Both the position numbers and the translations under genes were made by a program. 64,000 nt of DNA from the NCBI GenBank assembly GCA_963726745.1, contig CAVSDR010000003.1, forward strand, positions 256,001-320,000, written 5' to 3'. The stretch comes from an uncultured Verrucomicrobiae bacterium. Its GTDB lineage: Bacteria > Verrucomicrobiota > Verrucomicrobiia > Chthoniobacterales > UBA10450. Positions 4,109 through 64,000 of the stretch are shown one piece after another. Positions within the stretch are counted from its first letter, which is position 1. The number at the start of each line of letters is the position of its first letter. The notes beneath the pieces are model-generated. The model was given only the letters and a program-made list of their open reading frames with translations, had not been told where the DNA came from and made no database searches.

Positions 4109-7100
4109 ATGAAAATTCGTTTCCCTCGCCACGCAGCGTTGCTGCGCCCTGTCCTTGCCTTCTCCCTCTGCTTCGCGGCCGCGATGCTTCTCCTGCTCGC
4201 CTTGGCCAAGGCGCAACTGACCGAGACCTCGCCGCCTTGGCTGAAGCGATTCGCCTCCGCCTTCGGCGTCGACTCAACCTTCCATCGTCCTGCCGGCGGT
4301 GGAGGGGCCTCCGTTAAACTGGACAAGAATCCACCGGAAGCGCCGGCAGTGCTCCCGCAAGGAACACGCGCGGCCCGCTCCAGTCAGGCGACCCGCGATC
4401 AAGGCCCGGTGACGCCGGTTCGCAGTGGGAAATTGCGCGCCCTGCCGCCAATCGATCCCGAGACGGTGACCAAGCATTATCACGTCGAGCCCGTTTATCC
4501 CGAACCGCCGACGCGCAGCGGTGCGCCCGATGGCCCCATCCAAACGGAAGCCGGGGCCGTGACCTCAGCCCCGAGTCCCGCAGGCATCAGCTTCGACGGT
4601 GTTGGCGTGGGCCTGGGGACCTACAGTCCTTCGAGCAATCCGCCGGACGTGAATGGCCGAGTCGGCGCCACGCAGTATGTGCAGTGGAACAACACCAGCT
4701 TCGCGGTTTTCAACAAAACGACCGGCGCGCTCGAATACGGTCCTGCTGCCGGGAACACGCTCTTCCAAGCGCTCGGCGGTGTCTGCGCCTCGCACAATGA
4801 TGGCGACCCGGTGGTCTCCTACGACATTCTCGCAGGACGCTGGGTGCTTTCGCAATTTGTCGTCGGCGGCCCGGCGGGCGGCTACTCGCACCAATGCTTT
4901 GCGGTCTCCACCACCTCCGATGCCACCGGCGAGTATTACCTCTACGACTTCATTACCGACCCGGTGAATTTCGTCGATTATCCGCACCAGGGCGTCTGGC
5001 CGGATGGTTACTACATGGCTGCACACGTCTTCAGCGCCGGGCCGATTGAAGTGCCGGTGGCGGTGCCCGGGGCTTTCATCGAGGGACGCACGTATGTCTT
5101 CGAACGGGAGAAAATGATCAAAGGGCTTCCGGCGCGACAAGTAAGCGTCGAGATGGGACGCCAGATCGGCCATCTGCCGGGCGATCTGGATAGCTTAACG
5201 CCGCCGCCCGTGGGCGAGGCGGCATTTGTCCTGGGACCGAACGAAGCCCTGACGAATATCACGAACTCGTATCGCTTGCAGGTGACGTGGGATCCGACCC
5301 CGGCGGTGGCCGTCACCCGCGGACAGATTCTCTTCGGCACCGGCACGCCGCCCTGCGTGAACGGGCAGGCCTCCCCCGCGCGCGATTGCGTCCCGCAGCC
5401 TGCGCCGGCCACAGGTCTCGATTATCTCGACCGCCTTTCGGGCCGCTACATGTATCGCCTGGCTTACCGCAACCAGGGCACGCCAGCGGTGGCTGATGAG
5501 TCGCTCGTGGTTAGCGCGCCCACCTCGGGCAGCACGAGCACCCCGGCGCACGGGGCAGTGCGCTGGCTGGAGTTCCGCAACGCCGGCGATTCCCTCGCGA
5601 CGCCGACTCTTTTCCAGTCCGGCACTTTCGATCCGGACATTAGTTATCGTTGGATGCCTTCAGTCGCGATGGATAAGGATCGCAACATTGCGCTCGGCTA
5701 CAGCAAGTCGAGCCTCACGATCAAGCCGGGCATTTATCTCACCGGCCGGCTGGCGGGCGATCCCGTCGGCCTCATGGGCGCGGAGGCGGAAATACAGCCA
5801 GGCTTGGGCGTGCAACTGGGTGCCGGAAATCGCTGGGGCGATTACACCGCGATGACCTTGGACCCGATCGACCAGTGCACCTTCTACTACACCAACGAAT
5901 ATCTGAAAACGACCGGCAGCTTCAATTGGTCCACCCGCATCGCCGGCTACCGGTTCCCCACCTGCACCTCGGCAGCGAATCTCTGGGGCACCGTCACCGG
6001 CACCATTACCTCCGCTGAAACCGGAGCGCCGATCTCCGGCGTGCGCGTTTCCTTGAGCAACGATTACGCCGGCGCCAGTAATGCCAGCGGCGTTTACACC
6101 ATCCTCGTGCCCGCAGGGACCTACACCGCGATGGCGGCCGACGCTGCCCGCAATTGCGCCTCGGCCTCGCCGGCGTCGGTCACGGTCTCCCCGCCCGGCG
6201 GCGGGTCGGTCGTCCAGAATTTTGTCATGAGCGGCGTCTCCAAGCTGGAAGCGAGCGGAGCCACAATCGATGACTCGTTAGGCAACGGCAATGGCATCGT
6301 CAATCGCGGCGAATGCGTCCGGGTGAACCTGGGAGTGAAGAACAATGGCTGCGCCAAAGCGTCGGCTATTTCCGCGCAGCTCACCACCACCACGCCCGGC
6401 GTGACCGTGGTCGACGGTGCTTCCAGCTACTCCGACAAAGCGATCGATGAAAGCGGCAACAACCAGACGCCCTTCAAGATCTCGGTGTCCGATTCCTTCG
6501 GCTGCGGCACCGAGATCGCGCTCGCGCTCAACCTCACCTACGCGAATGGCACCAAGACGATCAACTATTCCATTCCCACCTGCGCCGGCGGCCCCGATCA
6601 GGCGATCCCCTCGAGCCAGTTGACCACCAGTGATGCCACCCAGCAGGATCGCCTGGGCCGCAACGGCCGGCCGAGCACCTGTGCGGGCAAGGCCAGCCCT
6701 GGCGGCGGCTTCGCGGGCACGAAGTACTACAAGACCTTTACCTTCACCAACACCGCGGGCGCGCCGCGCTGCTACACGGTCACGATCAATGCCGGCCTCA
6801 ACGGCCCCGGCGATATCGAAAGCGCGGCCTACGACCAGGTCTACGATCCGGCCAACCTGAGCACGAATTACCTCGGCGACACCGGCATTAGCGGCCTCGG
6901 CACCACCGTCGATACCGCCAGCTACGCCTTCACCGTTCCGGCAGGGCATAACTTCGTCATCGTGGTCAACACCACCGGCTCGAACACTTCCGGCAACATC
7001 GCCTCCTCGCCCTTCAGCGGCACGGTTTCCGGATTCATCAACAACGCCGCCGGGCCCGGCGACTGCGCATCCCTTCCGCCGATTCCCGCGCTGCTCAGCG

Positions 7101-7591
7101 GCGCCTCGCGCCTGACCCATGGTTCCGCCGGGACCTTCGACGCGCCCTTGCCGCTGGATGGCAGCGGGATCGAGCCGCGCCGCGGGAACGGCAATTACCT
7201 GGTCGTCCTGCATTTCGACCGCGCCGTGCAAAGCGGCAGCGCCACCGTTTCCTCGGGCACCGGGATGGCGGCGCCGCCGACCTTTAGCGGCAATGACATG
7301 CTCGTGCCCTTGAGCGGCGTCGCCGATCAGCAGCGCCTCACGCTCACGGCTACGAACGTCTCCGGCGCGGGTGGACCGGTCCTGGCCTCGGTGAATCTGC
7401 AGATGACCTTCTTGATTGGCGACACGAATACGGACCGCACCGTCAATGCAGGCGATGCCTTGCAGACCCGCGATCGCTCCGGCCAACTCAGCGACATGAC
7501 GAACTTCCTCACGGACGTGAACCATGACGGCACGATCAATGGCGGCGACGCCATCATCGTGCGCGGGCAGTCCGGGAAAACGGTCCCGTGA
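4109..7591 (+). CDS. Large secreted multidomain protein with carboxypeptidase-regulatory-like domain and C-terminal dockerin-like repeat
   Basis: Signal peptide; PPDxNGxVG and RWGDY motifs; GTVTGTIT..GAPISG domain; C-terminal GDTNTDRTVNAGD/DVNHDGTINGGD EF-hand-like pair. Confidence 0.8.
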   Translation: MKIRFPRHAALLRPVLAFSLCFAAAMLLLLALAKAQLTETSPPWLKRFASAFGVDSTFHRPAGGGGASVKLDKNPPEAPAVLPQGTRAARSSQATRDQGPVTPVRSGKLRALPPIDPETVTKHYHVEPVYPEPPTRSGAPDGPIQTEAGAVTSAPSPAGISFDGVGVGLGTYSPSSNPPDVNGRVGATQYVQWNNTSFAVFNKTTGALEYGPAAGNTLFQALGGVCASHNDGDPVVSYDILAGRWVLSQFVVGGPAGGYSHQCFAVSTTSDATGEYYLYDFITDPVNFVDYPHQGVWPDGYYMAAHVFSAGPIEVPVAVPGAFIEGRTYVFEREKMIKGLPARQVSVEMGRQIGHLPGDLDSLTPPPVGEAAFVLGPNEALTNITNSYRLQVTWDPTPAVAVTRGQILFGTGTPPCVNGQASPARDCVPQPAPATGLDYLDRLSGRYMYRLAYRNQGTPAVADESLVVSAPTSGSTSTPAHGAVRWLEFRNAGDSLATPTLFQSGTFDPDISYRWMPSVAMDKDRNIALGYSKSSLTIKPGIYLTGRLAGDPVGLMGAEAEIQPGLGVQLGAGNRWGDYTAMTLDPIDQCTFYYTNEYLKTTGSFNWSTRIAGYRFPTCTSAANLWGTVTGTITSAETGAPISGVRVSLSNDYAGASNASGVYTILVPAGTYTAMAADAARNCASASPASVTVSPPGGGSVVQNFVMSGVSKLEASGATIDDSLGNGNGIVNRGECVRVNLGVKNNGCAKASAISAQLTTTTPGVTVVDGASSYSDKAIDESGNNQTPFKISVSDSFGCGTEIALALNLTYANGTKTINYSIPTCAGGPDQAIPSSQLTTSDATQQDRLGRNGRPSTCAGKASPGGGFAGTKYYKTFTFTNTAGAPRCYTVTINAGLNGPGDIESAAYDQVYDPANLSTNYLGDTGISGLGTTVDTASYAFTVPAGHNFVIVVNTTGSNTSGNIASSPFSGTVSGFINNAAGPGDCASLPPIPALLSGASRLTHGSAGTFDAPLPLDGSGIEPRRGNGNYLVVLHFDRAVQSGSATVSSGTGMAAPPTFSGNDMLVPLSGVADQQRLTLTATNVSGAGGPVLASVNLQMTFLIGDTNTDRTVNAGDALQTRDRSGQLSDMTNFLTDVNHDGTINGGDAIIVRGQSGKTVP

Positions 7592-7595
7592 GCGC

Positions 7596-8207
7596 TTAAC
7601 TCGCGGACTTCCGGCCGGCTTTTCGCAGCGCGATTTGGTCCGAGGGACGCGTGTCGGCTTTGAGAAACTTTCGCATCAAGGCCAGCGCCTCGTCATTTTC
7701 ACGCGGCGTGTTTGAGGCGCAGCAATCCTCCGGGATGAGCAGGTCGTAGTCGCGCATGTAAGCGTCGTTCGCGGTGAAGAGGACGCAGAAGTTGCCGGCT
7801 AATCCCGTGAGGATGAGCCGGCGCGATCCGAGGTAACGCAGGAGCGTTTCCAAAGTGGTCGCGAAAAACCCGGAGTGCTTCGGCTTGAGCACAAAGTAAT
7901 CGTCCTTCGCCGGGCGCAGCATTTCGGCGATCTTGCGGCCGCGCACTCGCTGCGCGAGGCAGTGCCGGATGGTGCGCTGGAAGTCGGATTGCCAGCGCCC
8001 GAAGTTGTCGTTCACGTAGATCACCGGCACGCCGGCCTGGCGCGCCCGGCGTTTCAGGCGGCGGAGGTTTTTCGCCATCGCGAGCGCCTGCGGCAGCATC
8101 CCCTCGGCCTCGGGGAAATCGAGGTCGTTGATCACGTCGATCAAGAGCAGCGCCGTCTCGCACTTGTCCGGCGCGTTCCCGTGCAGGTCGGAGTTCTTCG
8201 GCGGCAT
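7596..8207 (-). CDS. Isochorismatase-family cysteine hydrolase
   Basis: ALLLIDVIND, KPKHSGFF.T.L, G.AGNFCVLFTANDAYMR; start MPPKN at 8207. Confidence 0.9.
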   Translation of the reverse strand: MPPKNSDLHGNAPDKCETALLLIDVINDLDFPEAEGMLPQALAMAKNLRRLKRRARQAGVPVIYVNDNFGRWQSDFQRTIRHCLAQRVRGRKIAEMLRPAKDDYFVLKPKHSGFFATTLETLLRYLGSRRLILTGLAGNFCVLFTANDAYMRDYDLLIPEDCCASNTPRENDEALALMRKFLKADTRPSDQIALRKAGRKSAS

Positions 8208-8251
8208 GAGGTTTTCACCCAGGCCGGCGAAGGCCGTGAGCGTGGGACGCG

Positions 8252-8530
8252 TCAGCTCTTTTTCCGCGAGCTCTTCTTGGCGCTGCTTTTCTTGGCGCTC
8301 TTCTTTGCGCCACCGCTCTTCTTCCCGCCTTTGCGCGAGCTGACTTTCGAGCTCTTCTTGCCGCGACCGGAGCCGGATTTCTTCCCGCCCTTGTCCTCTT
8401 TGTTGACCGTGGCCCAGGCGCGGCTCTCGGCTTCTTTTTTGGAAACGCCGCGCTTCTCGTAGCCCTCTTCGATATGCTCGGCTTTGCGCTTCTGTTTGTC
8501 GGTGTAAGCCGACTTGTCCCCTTGTGGCAT
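8252..8530 (-). CDS. Small basic protein ('plasmid stabilization protein'-like) with K/S-rich tail
   Basis: MPQGDKSAYTDKQKRKAEHIEEGYEKRG..RAWATVNK is a conserved family signature. Confidence 0.8.
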   Translation of the reverse strand: MPQGDKSAYTDKQKRKAEHIEEGYEKRGVSKKEAESRAWATVNKEDKGGKKSGSGRGKKSSKVSSRKGGKKSGGAKKSAKKSSAKKSSRKKS

Positions 8531-8656
8531 ACGTCCTCCTGGTTTTTGCGCGCGACCCTTTCGCACGCTTCAATTTCCGAATCGCAACCGACCTAGCGAC
8601 TGGATTGGTCGCGAAAGATTGGACGCCGCCGCCTCCGCCGTGGAAACTCCGCTCCT

Positions 8657-9727
8657 GTGCCGCACGACAAACTTTTCATTCCCGGCCCGGTCGAGGTCTC
8701 ACCGAAGACTTGGGAAGCTTTCACCCGGCCGATGATTGGTCACCGCTCGGAGGCCTTTCGTGAGCTTTACCGGGCAATCCACCCGCCGCTGCAGGAACTC
8801 TTCGGCACAAAACAGCCGGTCTTCCTCTCCACCTCCTCGGCCTGGGGCGTGATGGAAGCCGCGATCCGCAACGTGGTCCAGGAGCGCGTCCTTTGCTGCA
8901 TGTGCGGCGCCTTCTCCGACAAGTGGCTCGACGTCGCGCGCCGCTGCGGGGTGCAAGCCGAGGGCTTGCAGGTGGAATGGGGCCGGCACATCGACCCCGC
9001 TGCGCTCGACGAGAAATTAGCCAGCGGGATGTTCGACGCGGTTACCCTGATCCACAACGAAACCTCCACCGGTGTAATGAATCCCCTCCCCGAGATTTGC
9101 TGCACCCTCGCCAAGTATCCCGAAGTCGCGCTGATTGTGGACACAGTTTCCTCCTTCTCCACCATGCCGATCCCGATGGACTCGTTAGGCATCGACGTTC
9201 TCCTCACCGGCAGCCAGAAAGCACTCGCGCTCCCGCCGGGCTTCTCGCTCTTCGCGGTCTCGCCGAAGGCGATGGCGCGCGCCGCGGAGGCAGAAAATCG
9301 CGGCTACTACTTCGACTTCCTCGAGTTCGCGAAGAACCAGGAAAACGACATGACGCCCACGACCCCGAGCGTGGCCCACATCCATGCGCTGCAGTCGCAG
9401 CTCGAGATCATGCAAGCCGAAGGCCTGGCGAATCGTTTCGCGCGCCACGCGCGCACGAACGCGCTGGTGCACGACTGGGTGCGAGCGCGCGGCTTCGAGT
9501 TTTTCGCCGAGGAAGGCTACCGCTCCGTCGGCCTCACCTGCGTACGAAACAGCCGACAAATTGATGTGGCCAAATTAGTCAGCGATCTGCGCGCGAAGCA
9601 TCATCTGGTGATCGACGGCGGCTACGGCAAGCTCAAAGGGAAGACCTTTCGCCTCTCCAACATGGGCGACGAAACCGAGGAAACCGTGGCGCATCTCCTG
9701 CGCTGTCTCGACGATTGTCTCTCCTGA
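8657..9727 (+). CDS. Class V PLP aminotransferase (alanine-glyoxylate/serine-pyruvate family)
   Basis: LFIPGP, HNETSTG, GSQKALALPPG (PLP lysine). Confidence 0.92.
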   Translation: MPHDKLFIPGPVEVSPKTWEAFTRPMIGHRSEAFRELYRAIHPPLQELFGTKQPVFLSTSSAWGVMEAAIRNVVQERVLCCMCGAFSDKWLDVARRCGVQAEGLQVEWGRHIDPAALDEKLASGMFDAVTLIHNETSTGVMNPLPEICCTLAKYPEVALIVDTVSSFSTMPIPMDSLGIDVLLTGSQKALALPPGFSLFAVSPKAMARAAEAENRGYYFDFLEFAKNQENDMTPTTPSVAHIHALQSQLEIMQAEGLANRFARHARTNALVHDWVRARGFEFFAEEGYRSVGLTCVRNSRQIDVAKLVSDLRAKHHLVIDGGYGKLKGKTFRLSNMGDETEETVAHLLRCLDDCLS

Positions 9728-10899
9728 CGCGCCTCCTTCCGCGGGCGAAAAATCGCCGCCCGCCAGTGCCACCGCCGGCGGATGATGCGCGGCGGCTGCG
9801 GGACTTTGCGCGCGCTCTCAGCGAACGCTTTTGCCTCGAAGACGCCAAGGCCATCGAGCGCGCCGTAGCCCGCGAGCGCGGAGTGCAAGTGCGGGTGGCC
9901 TTTGATCCCGCGGCGGTGCAGCACGCGATGAGCTGCGCCTGGTCGCGCGAGGCCGGGCAGCCGGCGCACTTCACCTTTCCCCGCTTCCAACCGGGGCATC
10001 TCCTCGAGACCGTGATCTATCGCTGGCTCGCGTTGCTGGAGCTTTTTCTCTCTCGCGAGCTGTCGACGGAGGTTCGCGGCCGGGTCGTGATCAACTTCAA
10101 CGACGCCGGGATCGAACCCGGCCTGGCCTTCTCCGGGAACCGCCCGGAATACCGGCTGATTCCTGATCCCGATTTCTTCACCACGCGCGGCTACGCGCAG
10201 GCGCGGGATCACTTTGCGCGTGCGCCAGTAGCCTGGCGCGACCGCAGCCCGGCAGTTTTTTGGCGCGGGAGTTCGCTCGGCCGGAAGGAGCACACGGCGC
10301 TCGAGATGCCGCGCGCGCGCCTTTGCCAAGTGGCCCGCGACGCGAGCGCGGCGGAATTCGATGTCGGCCTCAGCGAGGTCGTGGATGTCAGTGCCACAGA
10401 GGCAGCGCAGCTTCGCTCCGCGGGCTTGGTCAAGGATCGGGTCTCGTGGAAACGGCTCGCGCAATTTCGTTATCACATCGACATCGACGGCAACGCCAAC
10501 AGCTTCGCCGGCTTGTTCCGCAAGCTCTTGTCCGGCGGCGTGGTTTTCAAAGTCGCCTCGCCGGACTGCTACGCGCAGTGGTATTACCATCGGCTCAAAC
10601 CCTGGGAAAATTTCGTCCCGGTCCGGTCCGACTTAGGCGATTTGCTGGAAGCGATCGCGCGCTGCCGCGAGCAGGACAAACTCGCGCAACAGATCGCGCA
10701 GAATGGCCGCGCGCTGGCGCTGGCCCTTCGCTTCGAAACCGAATTCGCCGGCGCCGTGGCGACGGTGCGGGAAGCTTTCGCCGCCAGCCGGCCGACGGTT
10801 AAACGCTGGCTTCGGACAGCTCGCGCTTCGGCCCGGGATTGGGCGCATTTGTCAGCGGGCTGCGCCACGTTTCCAGCGGCAACAAGCCAATGCCCATGA
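9715..10899 (+). CDS. Glycosyltransferase family 90 (CAP10-like)
   Basis: FWRGSS, RYHIDIDGNANSF, WYYHRLKPWENFVPV..DL.DL, IAQNGR. Confidence 0.8.
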   Translation: MSLLTRLLPRAKNRRPPVPPPADDARRLRDFARALSERFCLEDAKAIERAVARERGVQVRVAFDPAAVQHAMSCAWSREAGQPAHFTFPRFQPGHLLETVIYRWLALLELFLSRELSTEVRGRVVINFNDAGIEPGLAFSGNRPEYRLIPDPDFFTTRGYAQARDHFARAPVAWRDRSPAVFWRGSSLGRKEHTALEMPRARLCQVARDASAAEFDVGLSEVVDVSATEAAQLRSAGLVKDRVSWKRLAQFRYHIDIDGNANSFAGLFRKLLSGGVVFKVASPDCYAQWYYHRLKPWENFVPVRSDLGDLLEAIARCREQDKLAQQIAQNGRALALALRFETEFAGAVATVREAFAASRPTVKRWLRTARASARDWAHLSAGCATFPAATSQCP

Positions 10900-12650
10900 G
10901 CAGCACCTGGCTGAGGCAGAAACCGATCAGCCACGGGAAGGCGCTGTCCATGAAGCCGTAGGAATGCAGGCCGATGCCGAGCATGTTGACGCCAAACCAG
11001 GACCACGCGGTCACGACGTTGCCAAAAACAGCCAGCACCATCAGGCCGCGCTGTTTCACCAATCCGCCCCAGCGCGCGTGCAGGATGATTGCGTTCCAGA
11101 GCACGATCAGGAGCGCGCCGTTTTCCTTCGGGTCCCAGCCCCAAAAACGGCCCCACGATTGATCCGCCCAAATGCCGCCGAGGATCGTCCCGACAAAGCT
11201 GAAGAGCGTCGCGAAACAAACGATCCCGTAGACCATGCGCGCGAGGGATTGCGCGGTGGCGCGATCAAGCGAGGAGGTGAGCGCGCCGCGCACGATGTAG
11301 GTCAACGCCAGAAAGCCGGCCAGGAAAGTGGAAGCGTAGCCGAGAGTCACGCAGACCACGTGAGTCGCGAGCCAGCCATTGGTGTCGAGGACCGCGCGCA
11401 TCATCTCCATGGTGTCGCCGTCCATCGAGAGATGGTGCGCGATCAGGAGGGTGACGAAGCCGAGCATGGCCGCGGTGGCGCTGCCGATGCCGTTGCGGAA
11501 AAAGCGCTCGAGAAAGATGCCGAGGAAGACGCAGCCCCAACCGATGAAAACGGCGCTGGAATAAAGATTCGTCACCGGCGGCCGGCCTTCCAGATACATC
11601 CGGGTCAGCAGGCCTAACGAGTGCGCCACGAAGGTAACAACCAGCAAGATGTAGGCGTAGCGCCCGAGCGCTTCCGGCCGCGTGAGCCAGGAAGCGGCCG
11701 CAAGGATGAAGATGAGAACGTAGAGCACCATCGCGCCGTAGAACGGCTGCAGCTGGTTGAAGACGCTTTCGACGTTCGCCTTCCGGACGCGCCCCGGAAA
11801 ATGCTTCTGCAGCCAGGCGCTGTAATCGCTGACCGTGCGGTTAAACGTCGCCGCGTCTTTCGCCTGGAAAGCGCTCGCCATGGTCGCGTAGGCCGTGACT
11901 GCGGGATGGAGATTTCCCTCGGAGAGGAAGGCCACGATGCTGTCGCCTATTTTCCGCCATTGCAGCGGATCGTCGGCCGGTGGCACTGGCGGAATCGGGA
12001 AAAAATAACCGGTTTCCGCGAGGAAGGCGAAGCTCTGCAGCGCCTCGGTCGAGATGCCGCTCTGCATCGGGACTGGCGACGGCTTGACCGTGCGCGTGAG
12101 CTCCTCGATCTGCGCCGCGAAGTCGTCCGTGCCGGAAACTTGCAGGCTGTTTTTCAGCCGATGGTAAAGCGTCAGGCGATCGAACAAGCTTGATGATGTC
12201 GCGCTGGAACGGCGAGCGCACCTGCGTCTCCACTTTTTGCGCGAGCGCGGCCTGCTGCGCGATCTCCTGCGCATGCGGGAAGAGCTCGCGGAAGCTGTAA
12301 TCCTTCCCGCGATCCGGGGACCAGCCGAGCGCCGAGAGCGTGTCGCCATTCCGGATCACGAAGACCTTCCGCAGGTCGGCCTCGCCCGGCTGGAACATCA
12401 GCTCCGTGAGCCAGGCGATCGGGGTGAGCGTTTCCCCTTCGCCGCGCACGGTCTGCTTTCCGTGGATAATAAGCAGCGAGTTCCGCGCGACGGTGTCGAT
12501 CGGCTTGATCCGCCCGTTCAAGAGCACCGGCAGGCGGCCAAATTTCTCCAGGTCGAAGCCGTTGCGCGTCTTCGTCTCGAAGAGCGGCGAAAGCAGGTAA
12601 ACGATCGCGCCAAGCACGAGCCCCCACGAAATGAGACGTCGAGTTCTCAT
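10799..12650 (-). CDS. ccsA: Cytochrome c biogenesis protein CcsA (System II), split by a frameshift near 12187
   Basis: GRIKPIDT in ORF 11841..12650; RPPVTNLYSS, WLATHV, WADQSWGRFWGWDPKEN (WWD motif), GLHSYG in ORF 10799..12349. Confidence 0.9.
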
Positions 12651-13814
12651 CGAGCGCGTTTCCTCACGAAGCCGAAAAGATGCATGGAAAATTGCACCGT
12701 GAGCCCGAGCGCCACCAGTCCGCAGGCAAGGTAAGGGATGAGCATCGCGGGATTGCGCACCACCTGGAGGATGGTGGTCTTGTCGTTATTATCGAAGCCG
12801 GCCTGGTAAAAGGTGAAGCCGCGATAGCGCAGCGGATCATTCATCGAGATCAAGACCTCGCGGTTCTCGTTCCGCTCGGGATCGAGCAGGCGGACGCGGC
12901 TGGAGAAATTTTTCGGGATATCGGTTCCGGCGTAACGGTCGTGCTTAAAGTCGAGCAAGGTGAGCCCGAAGTTTTTCGGGAAACGGCGCTGCCGCATGAT
13001 CAGCTCGAAGGTGCGCTCGCCGACGGTGAAGGCCTGCGCGTCCGGGATGGCGTTCGAGACCAGCCACGTGCCTAACGAGCCCTGCACCCCGCTCACTTCC
13101 ACGTAGGCCGCGGTCAGGTCGCGCTCGTCGTCTTTGACTGTGCGCGGGATTTCTGTGATCGCGACGTTGACCCCGAAACCGGTGGTCGCAAGGGAAGGCG
13201 GCGCGGCCGGTTCCTGCGCGCGCATGGCCACGCGCGCGTTCGGAATGAAGCGCCGGATGTTGAGCGTGAAGGGCAACGCCGGATGCTGGATCGTGCCGCC
13301 ACGCGCGAGCAGCTCGCTCCGGAATCGCTACCACCTGGTCAAAGTCCGGGTTGGTCACATCGATGACTGCGAGCTCGGTTTCGCGCGGCGCTTCCGAGTA
13401 AGCCAGCGTCTGGCCTTCATCCATCCGCATCTGAGTTTCGCGCGCGAAGAGGCCGGTGAGCAGCTGGCCCACGAGCAGAAGGATCACGCCGAGGTGCAGC
13501 AGGATGATGCCGATCTTTTTCTTCGTGAGCTGGAACCGCGTCAGGTGCGCCGCGAGCAAATTAGCCAGCAAGACGGTGCCGAGCAGATAGCCGCCGGGAA
13601 GCACCGGAATCTTCCAGGTGGCGCCGTCCGGTCCCCACCAGACCAAAAGGCTCTGGAAGTAATGCGCCTGGACCGCGTGAATCCCCAGCCGCACTTGCGC
13701 GAGCGTGCCCAGAAAAACCAGGAGCATGCCGATCCCCAGGCAGACGACCGTGAGGCGCAGCGAGGCCAGCGCGCGCCAGGGCGAGCGTTCGAAGCGGACG
13801 GTTTCGCTGCTCAT
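12647..13814 (-). CDS. Cytochrome c biogenesis ResB/CcsB-like protein, split by a frameshift near 13313
   Basis: LASLRLTV, LLHLGVILLLVG, then HDRYAGTDIPKNFSS, ISMNDPLRYRGFTFYQ; abuts ccsA. Confidence 0.85.
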
Positions 13815-13818
13815 TTTC

Positions 13819-14880
13819 TCAGGGAATCTTCAGGCTGCGCAGGAAGTCGGCAAAGGCGCTTTTCTGCGAGAGCACGGTGGCGTCGTCGCCGGTCATCTTG
13901 ATGAACCAGGCATGATCCTTTTCGTCGAGAATGGCGGCGAGGATGCGTTGCTTCTCCGGGCTCTCGCCGACCGGCCCGGTGCTCACGAGGTCGACCAGGT
14001 GAAAGTCGTGCCCGTTCACTTCGAGATGCTCGATCGTCGGCGCGAGCGCCGCTTCATCGACCGGCGGGAGATTGAGCTGGCCGCGCCAGCGATTGACGTT
14101 CGCCAGTTCGCCGCCAGCCGCGCCGCCTAACGAGACCACGGAAACGTCGGCTGTTTTTCCATCCGGCCCGGTGGCGTTGAAGCTGGCCAGGCGCATCGGC
14201 GTGAGCGGTTTCACCGCCCAATTAGACGGCAGGATGTATTGCACCGCGCCTTCCTCGGTCGGCGCAGTGGACGGCGACGCGGGCGCGTTCGTACTCGCGC
14301 CGGCACCGGCGGGGGCGTGCGCGGAATGGTCGTGCTCGGCCACGTGGATCGACCCGAGGAATTGCTCAAAAGCCGCGCGCTGCGCCTGCACGAGCGCGTC
14401 CGGCCCGGTCATCTTAAAGAACCAGGTCTCGCCCTCGACCGGAAGGATGCCGCCGAGGATGCGCTGGCCTTCATTCGCGAGATCGACCAGGAAAAGCTCA
14501 CGACCATTGACCGGCAGCGGCTTCCCGGCCTCGGCCTCGCTCGCGATCGGCGCAAGCTTCAATTGATTGCGCCAGCGGTTCACGTTCGCGAGCAGGCCGC
14601 CCGCTTCCGCCGGAAAGGAAATCACCGAGACGTCGGCTGCCTGGCCGTCGGCGCCGCGCACCGAAAAGCTGCCTTTGCGGAAGCCGCTGGCGGGTTGTTC
14701 CTCCCAGCCTTCCGGCGCGGTCCAATGCACCACCGCCGCATGTCCCTGCTCCGGTGCGGCGGCCGGCGCGCGCGTTTCCTTGGGCGCGCGGTAGACGGTG
14801 ATCTTGTCGTCTCCAGCATCGCAGGCGGCGAGCGCGAGCGCGGCGAAAGAGAAGACAGCGGTGGGCAAAAACGGCTTCAC
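13819..14880 (-). CDS. Lipoprotein with internally duplicated domain
   Basis: GTG start, LALAAC lipobox; two copies of W..P..W...ADVSV.S...ANVNRWR.QL.L...WF.KMTG. Confidence 0.75.
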   Translation of the reverse strand: MKPFLPTAVFSFAALALAACDAGDDKITVYRAPKETRAPAAAPEQGHAAVVHWTAPEGWEEQPASGFRKGSFSVRGADGQAADVSVISFPAEAGGLLANVNRWRNQLKLAPIASEAEAGKPLPVNGRELFLVDLANEGQRILGGILPVEGETWFFKMTGPDALVQAQRAAFEQFLGSIHVAEHDHSAHAPAGAGASTNAPASPSTAPTEEGAVQYILPSNWAVKPLTPMRLASFNATGPDGKTADVSVVSLGGAAGGELANVNRWRGQLNLPPVDEAALAPTIEHLEVNGHDFHLVDLVSTGPVGESPEKQRILAAILDEKDHAWFIKMTGDDATVLSQKSAFADFLRSLKIP

Positions 14881-14917
14881 AGGAGAGGTGAAACTACCCG
14901 TGCGACCGAAGTCGCTG

Positions 14918-16168
14918 TCAAGCGTCCAGGACCAGATCGCTCTTGGGCGCGCCGATGCAGGTGAGGCGCGTGCCCGGCTCGGTCTCGAAGTCGGATCGCT
15001 CGATGTAATCGACCGTGCCGGAGAACACGGCCACCTGGCAGGTGCCGCAGCTGCCGGCACGGCAACCGCTGGGGATGTTGATTCCGTGCGCCTCGGCCAG
15101 GTCGAGGATGCTGGTGTGTTCGCCGCACCACTTGAGGGTTTGCCCGCTTTTCTTGAATTGCACGGCAAAGCCGGTCGCCTCTCGCGCCTCGGGCGAGATA
15201 ACCGCGGCGACTTTCTTCACGCTCGAGGGACCAAAGGTCTCGTAGTGGATGTGCTTCTCCGGCACACCCCAGGCCTCGAGCCCGGCGGTGACGTCCTGCA
15301 TCATCGGTCCCGGCCCACAGAGGTAGAACTCGAAATTATTCGACGGCAGGAGCTGGCGGAAGAGATCGACGGAAATGCGGCCGTGCACGTGGTAATCGCG
15401 CCCCAGTTCGTAGTCTGTTTCCGGGCGGCTCGCGCAGACGTGCAGGTGCACGTTCGGATGCTCGCGCGCGATCCTCTCGAGGTCCTCTTTCATGATGTGT
15501 TCCGCGCGCCCGCGGACCCCGTAAAAGAACCAAATCTCGCGCCGCGAACTCTTCGCGACGAGCTCGTGAAGCATGCTGAGCATGGGCGTGACGCCGATGC
15601 CGCTGCCGATAAGCACGACCCCGCTGCTCGCGGCCGGGTCGAGGTAAAACTGCCCCGAGGGCGCCTTCACATCGAGGATGTCGCCCTCGTGCAATTGCTC
15701 GTGGAAAAAGCTCGAGACCAAGCCCGGCGGCCCGGCGGGATCGCGCGGCGGGATGCGCTTGATCGTGACGCGATAGTGCTCGCGCCGCGGACAATCGGAG
15801 AGGCTGTAGCAGCGGACGACCTGTTTTCCCTGGCCGGGAATGGTCAGGCCGAAGGTGAGATATTGGCCGGGGAGAAAATCTGGCAGCGGCTTCTGATCGT
15901 GCGGCGCGAGATAGAAGGAGCAGATGTCCGCGCATTCCTGCACTTTTTTGGCGACAAGAAATTTGCGCCAACCGTTCCAGGAAGCACCGGCCGCCGCGCG
16001 TTGCCCTCGGAGGTCGCGCAACATCTGCAGCTCCGTCTCGAGCAGTTGCAAACGGAGATCGGCCTGCCGTTTTTGCCCGGCGAGCCGGCGGAGATTGGCC
16101 GAGGTGACCAGCCCGATCTGGAGCAACCCGCCGCCTACGAGCACGCCGCCGAGCAATTCCGTGATCAT
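14918..16168 (-). CDS. FAD/NAD(P)-binding ferredoxin reductase with C-terminal 2Fe-2S domain and N-terminal TM anchor
   Basis: PGQYL, RCYSLS, GSGIGVTPM, YLCGP..M, CRAGSCGTC..LTC. Confidence 0.9.
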   Translation of the reverse strand: MITELLGGVLVGGGLLQIGLVTSANLRRLAGQKRQADLRLQLLETELQMLRDLRGQRAAAGASWNGWRKFLVAKKVQECADICSFYLAPHDQKPLPDFLPGQYLTFGLTIPGQGKQVVRCYSLSDCPRREHYRVTIKRIPPRDPAGPPGLVSSFFHEQLHEGDILDVKAPSGQFYLDPAASSGVVLIGSGIGVTPMLSMLHELVAKSSRREIWFFYGVRGRAEHIMKEDLERIAREHPNVHLHVCASRPETDYELGRDYHVHGRISVDLFRQLLPSNNFEFYLCGPGPMMQDVTAGLEAWGVPEKHIHYETFGPSSVKKVAAVISPEAREATGFAVQFKKSGQTLKWCGEHTSILDLAEAHGINIPSGCRAGSCGTCQVAVFSGTVDYIERSDFETEPGTRLTCIGAPKSDLVLDA

Positions 16169-16171
16169 CCC

Positions 16172-21141: not shown

Positions 21142-21195
21142 ACCGCGTCGCGCATGATTGCCGGAATGCGCCGCCCGCCGATCTAGCCCTCGGCC

Positions 21196-23738: not shown

Positions 23739-23741
23739 AAG

Positions 23742-48183: not shown

Positions 48184-48219
48184 TGCCCGCCGTCGCAGAC
48201 TACCATGAGCCGCACGGTA

Positions 48220-48911: not shown

Positions 48912-48971
48912 GCGCCGGAAAAGCAGGTGCGGACAGATAGTCGAAGACCCCCGCAGATGCTACCGTCTCCG

Positions 48972-51180: not shown

Positions 51181-51184
51181 CACC

Positions 51185-51799: not shown

Positions 51800-51838
51800 G
51801 GCCGTGCGCGCGCACGCAACTCGCTACAGACCGGAGGC

Positions 51839-52705: not shown

Positions 52706-52738
52706 CGCCACGGTCGAACGCGGACTAAAGTCCGCGGG

Positions 52739-53864
52739 ATGGCGAAAGCAAAAGCCAAAACGGGCGACGCCCAGATCCACGCGGTCGTCGGCTCCGACGA
52801 GAGCGAGGTCAAGCGCACCGCCGCGGAATTAGCCGCCCAGTTGACCCCGCCGGATGCGGGCGATTTCGGCCTCGAGATCATCGACGGCGCAGGCGACAAC
52901 AGCGAGCAATCTGCCAGCCGCATTCGCGCCGCGATCGATGCCTTGCAGACGCTCCCGTTCTTTGGCGGCAAGCTCGTCTGGCTCAAGAACGCGAACAGCC
53001 TGGGCGATTCCGTCATCGGCCGCTCGGTCGCGGTGCAGGAAGCGCTGGAGAAATTAGCCGACACTTTGGACGAAGGACTCGCGCCTGGAATTACCTTCCT
53101 GCTGAGCGCGACCGAGGTGGACAAGCGGCGCTCGTTCTACAAGTCGTTAGGCAAACGCGCCGAGCTGCAGGTGATCGACAAGCTCGACGCCAGTCGCAGC
53201 GGCTGGGAAGAGGAAGCGACCGAGATCGTCCGCCGCCGGGCGCGCGCGCGCGAACTCGCCTTCGAGGAGGAAGCGCTCGATCTCTTCGTTCTCCTGACCG
53301 GCGGCGACACCCGGCAAATCGAGAACGAGCTCGAGAAGCTCGACCTTTATGTGAGCGCGCAACGCCGCGTGACCACCGAGGAAGTGCGCACGCTGGTGCC
53401 GCTCTCGCGCGCCGGGGTGATCTTCGAATTAGGCAACGCTTTGGCCGCCTGCGATCTCGACCGCGCGCTCGCGCTCGTGCGCGGGCTGCTCGACCAGGGC
53501 GAAAGCGCGATCGGCATTCTCCTGGTCGCGATCCTGCCGACGGTGCGGAATCTCCTGCTCGCGAAGGACCTGATCGAGCGCCATCGGATGAGCCGGCCCT
53601 CGGCGCCGTTCTCTTTCATCTCCGCGGTCAATCGCCTGCCCGCGAGCGCGACCGAGCATCTCCCGCGCAAGAAAGACGGCACGGTCAACGCCTACGCGCT
53701 CGGGCCTGGCCGCGATGGCGGCGCACCGCTTCGAGACGGAGCAATTAATCGCCGGTCTCGAGGCTTGCCTGGAAGCGAACCTGCAGATCGTGAGCAGCGC
53801 GCTCGATCACGAGCTCATCCTGACCGAGATCGTGGTCAAGCTGCTTGCGCGGCCAGGTCGTTAG
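52739..53864 (+). CDS. holA: DNA polymerase III delta subunit, frameshift near 53702
   Basis: TLPFFGGKLV, ENELEKL, IFEL..AL; shifted frame continues LAAMAAHRF..ELILTEIVVKLL to TAG 53864. Confidence 0.85.
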
Positions 53865-54296
53865 ACCGCGGACGTGGTCCCATCGACCTGCTGGCGCGCG
53901 ATCGGCCCGAGGTAGGGAATTTCCCAACGCACACCGATAAAAGCCTTCACCAGCGTGATGATGAAGAAGACGAGGAAGGCCAGGCTAACCAGTGCCCAGA
54001 TGATCCAAAGGATGAGCGCGAAGACGACGCCAAGCGCCGGGAATGGGCGTGAGGATGGCGTGCGCGATGTTGAAGACGATCACGAAGACCAGCCAGGCAC
54101 CGCCGAAAATGATCGACTGCATGGCGTAAAAACGGACGAATGCATCGCGTTTCTCGAGCACGTAAAAGATGATCCCACCGATGAGCGGAATGCAGGCGAG
54201 CGCGGCGGCCACATTCGACGGCAGGCCGGTCGTGCTATTGGTCGGGCCGACCGGCGGCGGAGTCGTTGGAGGAATGGAATCAACAGGGTCAGCCAT
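53861..54296 (-). CDS. DUF4870-like small membrane protein, frameshift near 54037
   Basis: TGLPSNVAAALA, FVRFYAMQSI; shifted frame ..VKAF.G.RWEIPYLG. Confidence 0.75.
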
Positions 54297-54352
54297 GTCC
54301 TTGAGTACATGAGACCGCGCGCCGGGTTGTCAAGCGCGCGCCGGGAAACCGC

Positions 54353-55405
54353 ATGAGAGAAATCATCGTTCGCGCCGGCGCCGCACGCTATCGCGTGCTC
54401 GTGGGGCGCGGGCTGCTCCGCACCGTGGGCGAGGAAGTGCGCGCGCTCGGGCGCGGGCCGCGCTGCGCGCTGATCGCCGATGCAAACAGCGGCAAGCTCT
54501 TCGGTGAAGATGTGCGCGCAGCCTGGAGGTGGCCGGCTATTTCCCGACGGTGATCACGCTGCCGGCGGGCGAAGGTTCCAAATCGCTCGAGCACGCCGGA
54601 CGCTGTGGCGGAGAAGATGGCGGCTGCAGGATTGGATCGGACGTCGTTCGTGGTTGCGCTCGGCGGCGGGGTGGTCGGCGACCTCGCGGGCTTCGTCGCG
54701 GCGATTTATCATCGCGGCATTCCGGTGGTGCAGCTGCCGACGACTTTGCTCGCGCAGGTCGATAGCGCGATTGGCGGCAAGACCGCGGTCAACACGCGCG
54801 CAGCAAAGAACTTGTTAGGCGTGGTGCACCAGCCGGCCTTGGTCCTGGCCGATGTGGCCGCGCTGGAAACGCTTCCGCCGCGCGAGTTTCGGCAGGGCTT
54901 CGCGGAAATCATCAAGCATGGCGTGATCGCGGACCCGGCGATTTTCGAAATGTTAGCCGGCGACCTGGAGGCGCTGGTCGCGCGCAATCTCCAGATCAAG
55001 GCAGACGTGGTCGCGTTGGATGAGTTCGACACTTCGGGGGCGCGCGCGGTCCTCAATTTTGGCCACACCGTCGGCCACGCGCTCGAGCGCGCGGCCGGTT
55101 ATGGCGCGCTCCTGCACGGCGAAGCCGTGAGCCTTGGGATGGTGGCGGCGTGTGAGATTTCCGTGCGCTGCGCGGGCTTGCCGGAGGCGGAGCGCGCGCG
55201 GGTAATCGCGGCCTTGGAGCAGGTCGGCTTGCCGACGAAGTTGCCGGCTAATTTTCCGCGGGGGGAGATTTTGCCGGCACTGCGCGCGGATAAAAAATTC
55301 GAGCGCGGTGAAGTTCGCTTCGTCGTGAGTCCGAAGCTCGGAAGCGCCTACCTCTCCTCGGAGATCACGCTCGCGGAGATCGAAGGGGCGATCGCAAAGC
55401 TTTAA
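54353..55405 (+). CDS. aroB: 3-dehydroquinate synthase, frameshifts near 54525 and 54600
   Basis: GEGSKS, GGGVVGDLAGF, PTTLLAQVDSAIGGKT, LNFGHT.GH, HGEAV. Confidence 0.92.
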
Positions 55406-55547: not shown

Positions 55548-56826
55548 CTACGGGCGGGCGCCGCGGTAATAATTCACCAGACCATCGGCCACGCCGTCGG
55601 CATACTCGCGGAAAATGCTCGGGCGCTCGGTGCCGTTCACGTTGCGCAAGCCCTCGTAATCGCCCTCCTGCACGCGCCAGAAAACCTCGTCGCTGTTCAT
55701 CACATACGGCTCGTAATAGATCACCGGGCAATCGTAGAGCCGCGTGGCCATAAGATTGCGCAGGAAGACATACTCGGTGCCCTCGACCGGGGTGACGTTG
55801 TCGGTCGTGTAGCGATATGGCGGCAGCTTCGTGCGCTGCGCGAGCGCATCGGCGGCTTTCCGCGCGAGCGGCAACTCCTCCTCGTGCGTCCGGCTGAGCA
55901 AACGTTCCAGCATCTCGAAGCGCACGTCGTCGAACTCCAGCTCTGCCGGCAGGTAAGCGCCGTTGACCAGCAGGTGCAGATGATTCCGCTCGATCAAACG
56001 CGGCGCGGTCGGCACATCCCAGGCCTCGGCGTTGAAGTGCAAACAGAGGACGACGTCCGGCTTCAGGCGTCCGTTCACGATCGCAGCGCGCTGTCTGATT
56101 TCGCTGTTGCGATAAAAGAGCAGCTCGCTCTCCCAGCGGACGGTGTGCTCCTTGTCCGGATCCTCCGGCGCCGGCGAACTCTTCGCGCGGCTGCGCAATC
56201 CCGTTGCGCGCCAGGACCTCCCGCGCGAGCACGCGCAAATCATCGGGGCGCTTCGGCGTGGTCGGCTCGTTCTCCGCGCGCACCAGCGAGACGGTGGCGC
56301 CGAGCTTGCGCAGCTTTGGCGCGAGCAATTTCGCCACCCGCAAGGTCATGTCGCCCTCGGTCACGGGCCGGCTGTCGCCCACCTGGAACCAGCGCTCCTC
56401 CATCTTCGCCCAGCGTCCGCCGATGTGTCCCGGGTCGAGCGCGATTTTCACCCCGGCGAGCGGGCGGTCCTTGGGCGGCGCCTTCCGCGTGGCGGTGCTT
56501 TTCCAGGGACGCGCAAACTTCCGGCGCGACTCCTCGTTAGGCGCGAAGCGTAGAGTAAACCAGCTCTGGGCGTCGTGATCGATCAGGAAGCGCGCGCGCT
56601 CCGCTTCCACCTGGATGTGTTCCGCGCTGTAGCCGCGGGTGCAGTAGACCTTTTCGAGCGCGGCCACGAAATCGTCGTGCGTCATCGTCTCCTGATATTT
56701 TTCGAAAGCGGCCCACTCAGGCGGGTGCCCCAGCGGACTGACCTTCGGCGCTGCGCCTGCAGAGAGCAGCAAAGCCAGGGAGACTGCGACCACCAGCAGG
56801 CAGCGGCGATAGATGATGCAACCCAT
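55548..56826 (-). CDS. N-acetylmuramoyl-L-alanine amidase-like protein, frameshift near 56170
   Basis: KIALDPGHIGG, EG.MTL; other frame EIRQRA..PD..LCLHFNA, YEPYVMNS. Confidence 0.75.
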
Positions 56827-60829: not shown

Positions 60830-61640
60830 ATGCTGACGATCTTGTTTCTCGGGGACATCGTCGGCGAACCAGGACGGAGCGCGGTCATCGCGCGGCTGCC
60901 GCAGTTGAAGCAGCAATACGCGCTCGATTTCACGGTCGTCAATGGCGAGAACGCCGCCGCCGGGCGCGGGATTACGCCCAAGATCACGATCGACCTCCTG
61001 CGCGCAGGCGCCGCGGTGGTGACCACGGGCGATCACATCTGGGACCAAAAGGAAATCGTGCCCTACATCGCGACCGAGCCACGGCTCCTCCGGCCGATCA
61101 ATTACCCGAACGGCGCCCCCGGTGCGGGCACGATCGTGCTGGAGACGGCGAAAGGAAAAGTTGGCGTGATCAACGTCCAGGCGCGGACGTTTATGCAGCC
61201 GATCCTGGAGAATCCGTTCGAAGCCCTGGAGCGCGCGGTCGAGGAAATGCGGCGGGAAACGCCGGTGATCTTGGTCGACGCGCATGGCGAAACCACGAGC
61301 GAGAAGATCGCCATCGGGCGATTTCTCGATGGCAGAGTGTCGGCTGTTTTGGGAACGCACACGCATGTGCAGACGGCCGACGAACAGATTTTCCCCGGCG
61401 GGACGGCTTTCCTTTGCGACGCCGGGATGTGCGGGCCTAACGAGTCCATTCTCGGCCGCGCGATCGACCCGATCGTGGGCCGCTTCATCTCCAATTTGCC
61501 GGCTGCTTTCCCAGTGGCGCGCGGCGAGGTGCGAATCTGCGGCGCGGTCGTGCAAGTAGACGAAGCAACCGGGCGCGCCCTCTCGATCACCCGGGTGAAT
61601 GAGCTCATCCGCGCGCCGGCGGAAACTGGCGCTTTAGCAG
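60830..61640 (+). CDS. ymdB: TIGR00282/YmdB metallophosphoesterase (true 3' end uncertain)
   Basis: GDIVG.PGR, NGEN.A.G.G, H.ETTSEK, GTHTHVQTAD, D.GMCG; as assembled the frame reads on to 62272 antisense to infC. Confidence 0.85.
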
Positions 61641-63123: not shown

Positions 63124-63207
63124 GGCCGCGACCCTCCCAAAAACTTCGCCACGCGGAAAGCGCATTGTCTTGCCGGCAAACGTGCCATCTTGCTGCCTCG
63201 AACCCGC

Positions 63208-64000
63208 GTGCCCGACTTTAATCAGCTCCTCCTTCTCATTGCCGTGCTTTCGCCGCTGGTGGTGCTCGTGCGCACCTGGCGGCGGGCGGCGCTGAATCGC
63301 AGCTGGCGGCTCGCGGCGCTGGCGATTTTAGCCGTCACCACGGTGGCCTGGCTGCTCGCGCCGAGCGCGGCTGGCTTGTTCGGCGGCACGGCCTGGTTGC
63401 TCCTGCTCTTCCTGCCCACGCAGGGCCTGCGGCGCATGGCGGAACTGGCGGCGGCGGAGCGTTTCCCCGCGGCTTTTCGCCTGGCGACAATTCTCTCGCT
63501 GCTCCATCCCGCGCGCGCGGTCCGGGCGCAACGGGCCCAGCTGCAGGCGCTCGCGCTGGCGCAACGTGGCGAGCGCGAGAAAGCGCTGGCTAAATTCGCC
63601 GAGCTCGCGAGCCCGCAGGCGCTGCGACTGCGGGGCGATTGGCCGGCCGCGCTCGCCTGGTGCGAAGCCCACCTCCCGCGCGCTGGGCTGGGCGACGACC
63701 CCGCGCTTCTTCTGCTGCTCTTCCGCTCGTTAGGCGAAACCGGGCAGCGCGAGGAGCTGGTGGCACAATTCGCCGCGCGCGCCCCCAGCCTGCTGGCGAC
63801 GCCGTTGCAGCAGCCGACCTTCATGGCCAGCCTGGCGCTGCTTTTCGCTTTTTGCGGACGCACCGCGAGTCTGCGGCGCTTGCTCGCGGAGGACTACGCC
63901 GCGCTCCCGGAAGCGCCGCGCGCTTTTTGGCTCGCGACCAGCCTGGCGGCGGAGGGCCGCCCGGCGGAAGCGCGCGCGCTCTTCGAAGGACTGGCCCGGC
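63208..64000 (+). CDS. Membrane protein, possibly N-terminus of a rhomboid-family protease (runs off window end)
   Basis: Open frame from GTG 63208: VPDFNQLLLLIAVLSPLVVLVRTWRR.., several TM helices then helical repeats; catalytic region not in window. Confidence 0.55.
   Translation, partial: MPDFNQLLLLIAVLSPLVVLVRTWRRAALNRSWRLAALAILAVTTVAWLLAPSAAGLFGGTAWLLLLFLPTQGLRRMAELAAAERFPAAFRLATILSLLHPARAVRAQRAQLQALALAQRGEREKALAKFAELASPQALRLRGDWPAALAWCEAHLPRAGLGDDPALLLLLFRSLGETGQREELVAQFAARAPSLLATPLQQPTFMASLALLFAFCGRTASLRRLLAEDYAALPEAPRAFWLATSLAAEGRPAEARALFEGLAR

Follow-up and report, generated by a model that had tools for sequence, protein, structure and literature searches.

A hyper-abundant nine-base DNA word in one family of Chthoniobacterales, with features of a self-DNA uptake tag

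Why should one asymmetric ten-letter sequence recur inside gene after gene? The question was raised by a 64-kb stretch of DNA (the window, C3:256001-320000) from an uncultured Verrucomicrobiae bacterium, whose genome, here called G000, comprises 3.41 Mb in 7 contigs at 64% GC. The 10-mer CTCGTTAGGC was present in the window in 19 exact copies, 10 on the plus strand and 9 on the minus strand, whereas dinucleotide-preserving shuffles gave a mean of 0.07 copies and a largest count of 1. An earlier note, made from the letters of the window alone, had described these copies as a candidate DNA-uptake-like signal, and every coordinate and strand that it gave for them was right. With up to one mismatch allowed, the window held 38 matches compared to 3.87 expected; these included all 17 near matches named in that note and two additional ones, at 27384 and 41798. 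The analysis described here leads to the conclusion that (C)TCGTTAGGC is a genomic word specific to its lineage, and that what maintains it is a force on the sequence of double-stranded DNA and not on proteins.

Across G000 the 10-mer was the commonest of all 10-mers, with 820 copies (375 + / 445 -); the second-ranked, a GC-rich low-complexity word, had 519. Relative to the expectation of an order-3 Markov model, the 9-mer core TCGTTAGGC occurred 1312 times (19.7 expected) and the 8-mer TCGTTAGG 1514 times (54.1 expected). The word differs from its own reverse complement, GCCTAACGAG, and is therefore not palindromic. Positions 2-8 of the 10-mer (TCGTTAG) were near-invariant, with 0-28 copies for each substitution variant except C to T at position 3, which had 93. 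Position 1 was C in 820 copies, G in 237, T in 226 and A in 29, while position 9 was G in 820 and C in 166 and position 10 was C in 820 and G in 99. The flanks carried near-zero information beyond 4 bases, with a weak W at -4 and -1 and a weak R at +10 and +11. Since the flanks are not conserved, the copies represent a bare word and not copies of a mobile element, and a dispersed repeat of the repetitive extragenic palindromic (REP) or miniature inverted-repeat transposable element (MITE) type was ruled out by the bare flanks together with the location of 580 of the 820 copies inside called genes. The 10-mer put forward in the earlier note is enriched as a unit, but the core conserved throughout the family is the 9-mer TCGTTAGGC, with the leading C merely preferred. 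Organisms of this family are known only as metagenome-assembled genomes (MAGs). An assembly or base-calling artefact was excluded, as the word was found, sometimes at the same orthologous codon, in MAGs of many studies and assemblers; in one read run, 10% of the sampled words were present on very small contigs of low depth, which were uninformative on word sites.

Genes were called in G000 with our own crude gene caller, which returned 2457 genes of at least 80 codons covering 80% of the genome. The number of coding copies of the 10-mer was 580, compared to a mean of 8.7 (range 4-13) in 20 synonymous-codon shuffles within genes, so the enrichment survived a codon-preserving null. By context, the 820 copies were divided into 240 intergenic or partial copies, 317 in sense that read S-L-G, 50 in sense that read L-V-R, 96 in antisense that read L-T and 117 in antisense that read P-N-E. 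All four stop-free frames were used, and the two stop-containing frames were empty. The word relied on the rarest codons (TTA, 2.9%; CTA, 1.4%), and 603 of 2745 TTA codons lay within TCGTTAG. S-L-G tripeptides were spelled TCGTTAGGC in 405 of 701 cases, where codon usage predicts 0.6%, and P-N-E tripeptides were spelled CCTAACGAG in 134 of 222. Of the peptide-compatible sites, a fraction of 0.52 and 0.26 (sense frames) and of 0.44 and 0.60 (antisense frames) carried the 10-mer; the 367:213 excess of sense copies arises largely because the compatible peptides differ in number and does not reflect a strand preference. The observed/expected ratio in the proteome was 1.59 for S-L-G and 2.37 for P-N-E, with permutations of both at 0.59-1.73. 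Selection or drive thus acts on the DNA sequence and not on protein, as the earlier note had argued from the different frames: the codon-preserving null, the use of four frames and the spelling of S-L-G all point this way. The three frames that it had named (S-L-G in sense with the TTA codon, L-T-S in antisense with the CTA codon, and P-N-E in antisense) were all present in the window, where the copies sit in functionally unrelated genes. The exact copies are given below with the open reading frame (ORF) in which each lies, followed by the one-mismatch copies.

6274..6283, plus strand: sense D-S-L-G in ORF 3872-7591 (CarboxypepD_reg-domain protein); orthologous codon compared in 76 loci
9181..9190, plus strand: sense D-S-L-G in ORF 8657-9727 (class V aminotransferase)
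11612..11621, minus strand: sense H-S-L-G in ORF 10799-12349 (-) (cytochrome c assembly protein)
13070..13079, minus strand: sense G-S-L-G in ORF 12647-13276 (-) (ResB-like)
14125..14134, minus strand: outside called genes; within mechanical ORF 13819-15168 (-), which has no Pfam match
20631..20640, minus strand: antisense, V-P-N-E, in ORF 20146-21141 (+) (cytochrome c554-like)
24218..24227, plus strand: sense G-S-L-G in ORF 23742-25991 (multihaem cytochrome)
31038..31047, plus strand: sense F-S-L-G in ORF 30853-31611 (DUF4388)
32280..32289, plus strand: sense F-S-L-G in ORF 31684-32577 (no Pfam match)
33692..33701, plus strand: outside called genes
34317..34326, plus strand: sense R-S-L-G in ORF 33772-34884 (NAD(P)H-hydrate dehydratase)
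40194..40203, plus strand: sense F-S-L-G in ORF 39322-42087 (DUF1800)
40472..40481, minus strand: antisense, S-L-T-S (CTA codon), in ORF 39322-42087 (DUF1800)
41048..41057, minus strand: antisense, G-L-T-S (CTA codon), in ORF 39322-42087 (DUF1800)
45902..45911, minus strand: sense L-S-L-G in ORF 44228-46264 (-) (TPR protein)
47917..47926, minus strand: sense L-S-L-G in ORF 46207-48183 (-) (TPR protein)
56533..56542, plus strand: outside called genes; within mechanical ORF 55402-56826 (-), which has no Pfam match
61435..61444, minus strand: antisense, G-P-N-E, in ORF 60830-62272 (+) (YmdB-like phosphoesterase)
63726..63735, plus strand: sense R-S-L-G in an ORF from 62707 that runs off the window
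360, 955, 26850, 27384, 28624, 34083, 35763, 36213, 37194, 41798, 42415, 42953, 43727, 43799, 44873, 46774, 50661, 53143 and 54811 (span 360..54820): the 19 one-mismatch copies, with T-[C/T]-GTTAG kept in 18

In sixteen of the one-mismatch copies the changed letter is at position 1, 9 or 10; two read CTTGTTAGGC, and the copy at 41798 is altered inside the core. At 10799-25991 the window has a row of genes for cytochrome c biogenesis (CcsA-like, ResB-like) and for multihaem cytochromes, and several of these genes bear the word. No Rfam family was matched in the window.

Along G000, the orientation of the word was mixed in every 60 kb bin, including those on contigs with a constant GC-skew sign, and the intergenic words between co-directional genes ran along the direction of the genes in 75 cases and opposed it in 62. 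Polarity was judged by GC-skew sign and gene direction, the genome being in 7 contigs with no mapped origin; by these measures, the strand-bias check proposed in the earlier note gave no polarity with replichore or with transcription. Approximately 71% of copies lay in called genes. Per kb, there were 0.33 copies of the 9-mer within genes and 0.45-0.61 in the spacers, where small genes missed by the caller lead to overcounting of the intergenic class. A link to promoters or terminators was not found, as the intergenic density was alike whether the flanking genes were tandem, divergent or convergent, and the density along genes was flat. Genes in the lowest quintile of third-position GC content (GC3) carried 0.20 words per kb compared to 0.29-0.41 elsewhere. 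Density was also somewhat lower, at 0.27 per kb, in the genes with the best codon scores, as would be expected if rare codons carry a cost. The two largest stretches without the word were low-GC surface-polysaccharide clusters (C7:60029-100750, GC 0.595, and C6:413728-437791, GC 0.600). The idea that word-free stretches are islands in general was rejected, since it held only for these two; six further gaps contained ordinary and secreted-protein genes and no phage marks.

The word spans one family of Chthoniobacterales, the relatives of Candidatus Udaeobacter. With the reversed word as control, the 10-mer was counted in 18 genomes of the same genus and in 12 genomes from 12 other families of the order, and the 8-mer core was counted in 81 genomes of the family from 30 genera. 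Core copies ranged from 19 per genome (G049, control 77) to 4744 (G073, control 125), and the forward and reverse counts were close in all 81. Within the genus, the 10-mer exceeded its control in most of the 18 genomes, which had 51-1404 copies (two of those counted, G001 and G008, are flagged unpublished); in one of them, G002, it was near control (51 vs 40). G005, G003 and G012 were likewise at about background, and G001, G013 and G010 had 876-1404 copies. The 12 genomes of sister families were at background, with 0-14 copies. The earlier note had held that absence from relatives would speak against a genome-wide signal; instead, the word runs through the family. A 391 kb sample of G073 contained the 9-mer 457 times with a degenerate preceding letter. 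Replacement of the word by another dialect was considered for two genomes that show no enrichment and rejected, as 491 kb of G049 and 254 kb of G002 contained no hyper-abundant word and only weak ones. The weaker enriched words were TTGCCGTCC (34 vs 3.3) and GAATGCGGA (26 vs 2.8) in the G002 sample (L165-L177) and AAACCAGGAA, with 26 copies, in the G049 sample (L098-L122). In G022, which belongs to another family of the order, most of the 14 copies of the 10-mer formed tight same-strand clusters (C7:94047-95481, C13:25-1454, C21:53993-55768 and C2:640582-641169); these clusters could belong to a gene for a repeat protein, or their DNA could have come from the family that bears the word.

The history of individual sites was assessed by comparison of orthologous positions. 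At the codon under the window copy at 6274, 37 of 76 aligned loci encoded S-L-G, 11 of them with TTA (10 as the full TCG TTA GGC) and 26 with CTC, CTG or CTT. This mixture of TTA and CTN codons at orthologous S-L-G positions indicated that the word was gained at synonymous positions, the outcome sought by the ortholog comparison that the earlier note had suggested. Retention of G000 words was then scored in blastn-aligned blocks of approximately 75% identity:

G013 (same genus): word at the same place in 28 of 56 cases; baseline of identical 9-mers 0.119
G073 (another genus): word at the same place in 26 of 61 cases; baseline of identical 9-mers 0.106
G002 (same genus, no enrichment): word at the same place in 1 of 34 cases; baseline of identical 9-mers 0.135

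Retention of 43-50% over a baseline of 11-12% shows that many sites predate the genera and are actively kept. The distribution of mismatches at word sites was bimodal: sites were identical or 4-5 letters off, and 1-3 mismatches were rare. At the sites of G000 words, G002 had a mean of 3.4 mismatches compared to 2.2 elsewhere. These alignments show that where the system is gone, the word has been erased faster than by neutral drift.

Which known class of genomic word does this resemble? The USS (uptake signal sequence) of Pasteurellaceae shares with it a bare asymmetric 9-base core, graded edges, a copy number of ~10^3, presence on both strands, a location mostly in genes and the use of several frames. 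As described for USS (PMC2817400, PMC2346458), the tripeptides concerned are roughly doubled, atypical genes are poorer in the word, copies arise by point mutation, and the word is confined to one family. The about two-fold excess is reported for tripeptides encoded by both USS and the DNA uptake sequence (DUS) of Neisseriaceae, and genes without homologues are described as lacking uptake sequences (PMC2817400). USS frames, in contrast, are reported to favour preferred codons (PMC2817400), whereas the word described here uses the rarest ones. It also differs from USS in its phylum, Verrucomicrobiota, in having no terminator-like inverted pairs, and in its 250-fold variation in strength and repeated erasure within the family. 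With DUS it has in common an asymmetric word of 10-12 bases, a hundred-fold excess, lineage-specific variation, and a genome that encodes a type IV pilus, ComEC and DprA. Unlike in DUS genomes, no match to ComP_DUS exceeded the cut-off, no replacement dialect was seen in the G049 or G002 samples, and G000 has added a second word and not switched to one; furthermore, ~71% of copies are in called genes, compared to 34.5% reported for N. meningitidis (PMC2817400). The highly iterated palindrome HIP1 and the alternate iterated palindromes of cyanobacteria are likewise hyper-abundant in genes, read in many frames, maintained at the DNA level and strong or missing depending on the member (PMC13756078), but the word here is not palindromic, and C5 methylase and Vsr do not track it. 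Chi and the FtsK-orienting polar sequences (KOPS) or architecture-imparting sequences are also short genomic words frequent in genes, yet the present word lacks polarity, with mixed 60 kb bins and 81 strand-balanced genomes. Chi and KOPS-type sequences are strand-polarised with replication and only modestly enriched. The preference of the earlier note for DUS and USS over Chi, KOPS and HIP1 thus agrees with the absence of polarity, the absence of a palindrome, the bare flanks and the restriction to one lineage.

We tentatively favour the possibility, on grounds of anatomy and dynamics, which it fits best, that the word is a self-DNA tag of the DUS/USS kind built by uptake bias and recombination. 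In such a scheme, many independent point changes would write the word into resident DNA, and a DNA receptor at the cell surface, part of a retractile type IV pilus or of a ComEC system, would prefer fragments that bear it. Recombination would then swap the fragments taken up for their homologues, so that word-creating alleles would spread and word-destroying alleles would be replaced (molecular drive), and the cost of rare codons and changed residues would cap the process. Uptake as the reading step, and a pilus protein as the putative reader, are inferred. G000 encodes DprA and three PilT/PilU ATPases above curated cut-offs, together with ComEC (N-terminal domain model over cut-off), PilB/GspE-like ATPases, three secretins and approximately 17 pilin-like proteins. 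Word-rich viruses were not found: an IMG/VR scan for two direct words 4-34 bp apart, which phages with G000-like spacing would escape, returned 34 stretches (GC 0.27-0.62), none with more than 6 core copies.

The spacing of the word in G000 was consistent with this possibility. Neighbouring 10-mers less than 200 bp apart numbered 12, compared to 38.7 for an exponential distribution. In a test controlled for opportunity, based on 1926 peptide-compatible sites of which 890 were filled, pairs with both sites filled numbered 3 at 12-100 bp, where 17.9 were expected (z -4.1), and 13 at 100-200 bp, where 24.2 were expected (z -2.7); pairs were neutral at 200-800 bp and in excess at 800-3200 bp. Direct, convergent and divergent pairs were each depleted approximately three-fold below 200-300 bp. 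Depletion in all orientations means that slippage between direct repeats is no explanation. Two USS within 100 bp are reported not to raise uptake (PMC7811141), so the drive for a second word nearby would vanish. A protein footprint would, however, give the same short-range deficit as redundancy in uptake.

Several observations weigh against reading the word as an uptake tag. The short-range deficit of word pairs is not general, as it is found in G000 and not in the densest relative, G073. In the G073 sample, pairs at 8-50 bp were in excess (52 vs 29.0), often as direct repeats with a spacing of 13 or 19 bp, and the deficit was confined to 50-100 bp (19 vs 34.6). The deficit was weak in the G013 sample, with 24 pairs vs 35.2 below 200 bp, and in G000 it extends over just ~200-300 bp, below the usual length of a transforming fragment. 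Only 1 of the 12 neighbouring 10-mer pairs less than 200 bp apart was a close inverted pair, with its copies 16 bp apart; in Neisseria and Haemophilus, close inverted word pairs often serve as terminators. This sole pair, at C3:1052256-1052281 outside the window, could form a hairpin. The G073 loci L143-L162 contained short direct arrays of the word, for example three copies at 13-bp spacing in L159, which is the opposite of G000.

The uptake machinery, moreover, was indifferent to the word. ComEC was found in 78 of the 81 genomes of the family, among them the word-free G049, G058, G063 and G035 (the last flagged unpublished), DprA and PilT in five of five word-free genomes tested, and secretins and T2SSE ATPases in five of five genomes tested. 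The best hit to ComP_DUS (PF16732), 21.9 bits over the N-terminus of a pilin, fell below the cut-off of 27.3, and co-variation tests yielded no candidate reader protein. Of the competence genes that the earlier note had proposed to look for, ComEC was encoded, as were DprA and PilT/PilU, but ComP_DUS was below cut-off and the machinery was present equally in word-free relatives. General uptake parts were accordingly rejected as a source of a reader by co-variation, since they occur regardless of the word and do not discriminate. Outside the window, at C3:1032975-1034820, three minor-pilin-like genes lie in a 19 kb stretch without the 10-mer. One of these, a FimT/GspH-like pilin (C3:1034137-1034820), was matched only weakly in the 18 genomes of the same genus (best E 9e-12; 29-33% identity where the alignment extends beyond the N-terminus), and six genomes from other genera had homologues at 42-52% identity. 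On present evidence it was rejected as a candidate reader because its patchy spread fits neither the main word nor the second word described below.

G000 contains a second, independent hyper-abundant word, TTAGCC[AG][AG]C (TTAGCCRRC), with 1139 copies, which also counts against an uptake tag; we know of no DUS or USS genome with a second hyper-abundant word. TTAGCCAGC alone occurred 479 times compared to 15.7 expected, and the weak 18-base consensus was about RAAW-TTAGCC-RRC-RM-N-W-T-S. The second word sits between genes and inside genes on either strand, and showed no spacing interaction (cross-exclusion) with the main word in G000. Among the 81 family genomes, it was above control only in G000 (479 vs 55) and, weakly, in G035 (136 vs 53; a genome flagged unpublished), and it did not exceed control in G013, G062 and G081, which belong to the same genus. 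This makes it a separate, young, species-level word. The uneven spacing, the second word and a machinery indifferent to the main word keep rival explanations alive.

An unlikely alternative is that the word is the binding site of an intracellular factor (nucleoid-organising, segregation, topoisomerase-like or self-marking defence), with selection keeping one site per stretch and no role for uptake. Such a site would be orientation-neutral and lie over genes and spacers alike, as the word does; the three-fold depletion of pairs below 200-300 bp in G000 has the scale of a footprint, sites persist across genera, and the uptake machinery occurs regardless of the word. No protein emerged as a candidate for this role, though, and selection at each of approximately 1300 sites would have to outweigh rare codons and changes of residue. 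The 250-fold range of abundance among relatives of similar lifestyle, with a same-genus genome that lacks the word, and the absence of exclusion at 8-50 bp in G073 also argue against it, and no nucleoid or segregation motif known to us reaches such a copy number inside genes. A signal of the Chi kind, read on single-stranded DNA by an enzyme of the RecBCD or AddAB type and modulating recombinational repair, is very improbable. One word per approximately 2.6-4 kb is near the density of E. coli Chi, and the word is confined to a species or lineage and common inside genes; it nevertheless has no strand polarity (mixed 60 kb bins; 75 vs 62 between genes), its sense excess comes largely from the numbers of compatible peptides, and the 9-mer is enriched approximately 65-fold, where Chi is enriched a few-fold for 5-8 letters.

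Sequence-directed repair bias, which Elhai is said to have proposed for HIP1 in cyanobacteria, provides a further alternative: a methylase or word-reading nuclease would steer mismatch correction (gene conversion), so that each site would be made and kept autonomously. The near-absence of one-letter variants in the core (G4 to A, C and T: 0, 0 and 1 copies vs 820 perfect) and the all-or-none state of orthologous sites suit such a bias, as do the word pile-ups without exclusion in G073 and a second word restricted to one species, given how fast methylase genes move. The C to T variant of the CpG had 93 copies and its partner G to A none, as one-strand cytosine methylation might give. Vsr, however, was matched in only 22 of the 81 genomes; it had no match in G000, nor in 10 of the 14 genomes whose core copies exceed 2000. 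C5 methylases were matched in 25 of 81, were absent from 8 of those 14, and were present in the word-free G058. Neither enzyme tracks the word across the 81 genomes, and an origin driven by Vsr or a C5 methylase was rejected; the option of DNA modification raised in the earlier note gains no support from these two enzyme classes, which were the ones compared. A site-autonomous process also does not predict the opportunity-controlled deficit in G000, and a contiguous asymmetric 9-letter site exceeds any methylase site known to us. Taken together, we consider a HIP1-like bias of this kind distinctly unlikely. C5 methylase and Vsr genes share contigs in several relatives (for example G073:C5:83127-86129), like mobile Dcm-Vsr pairs, while G000 has a C5 methylase at C5:212477-213604 and no Vsr match. 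It is unlikely, but conceivable, that a hitherto undescribed intracellular system of sequence-directed conversion, and not uptake, writes and erases such words through a reader that directs repair to its own site, and that it has been gained, lost or retargeted within the genus, has installed TTAGCCRRC in G000 and piles up 13-bp direct repeats in G073. If so, this would be a new kind of genome-editing drive in the Candidatus Udaeobacter family.

Literature searches by exact word strings, and by uptake and competence topics for Verrucomicrobia and Udaeobacter, found no description of the word. New here are the family-wide table of word strength, the erasure within a genus, the spacing test with its control for opportunity, which G073 did not bear out, the second word, and the negative co-variation tests. 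Uptake-enhancing sequences are treated as DUS in Neisseriaceae and USS in Pasteurellaceae in a recent account (10.1101/2025.10.24.684340). If the word is an uptake sequence, then sequence-selective transformation arose independently in Verrucomicrobiota. Candidatus Udaeobacter is among the most abundant soil bacteria, and if its family does filter for self-DNA, this would matter for gene flow, for the cohesion of species and for what becomes of extracellular DNA in soil. Should the reader prove not to be an uptake protein, the word would point to an undescribed mechanism that writes words into genomes. In this family, unlike in the classical systems, word strength spans a 250-fold range, genomes that have the word can be set beside genomes of the same genus that do not, and one species has recently gained a second word; these contrasts should make the reader findable by comparative genomics.

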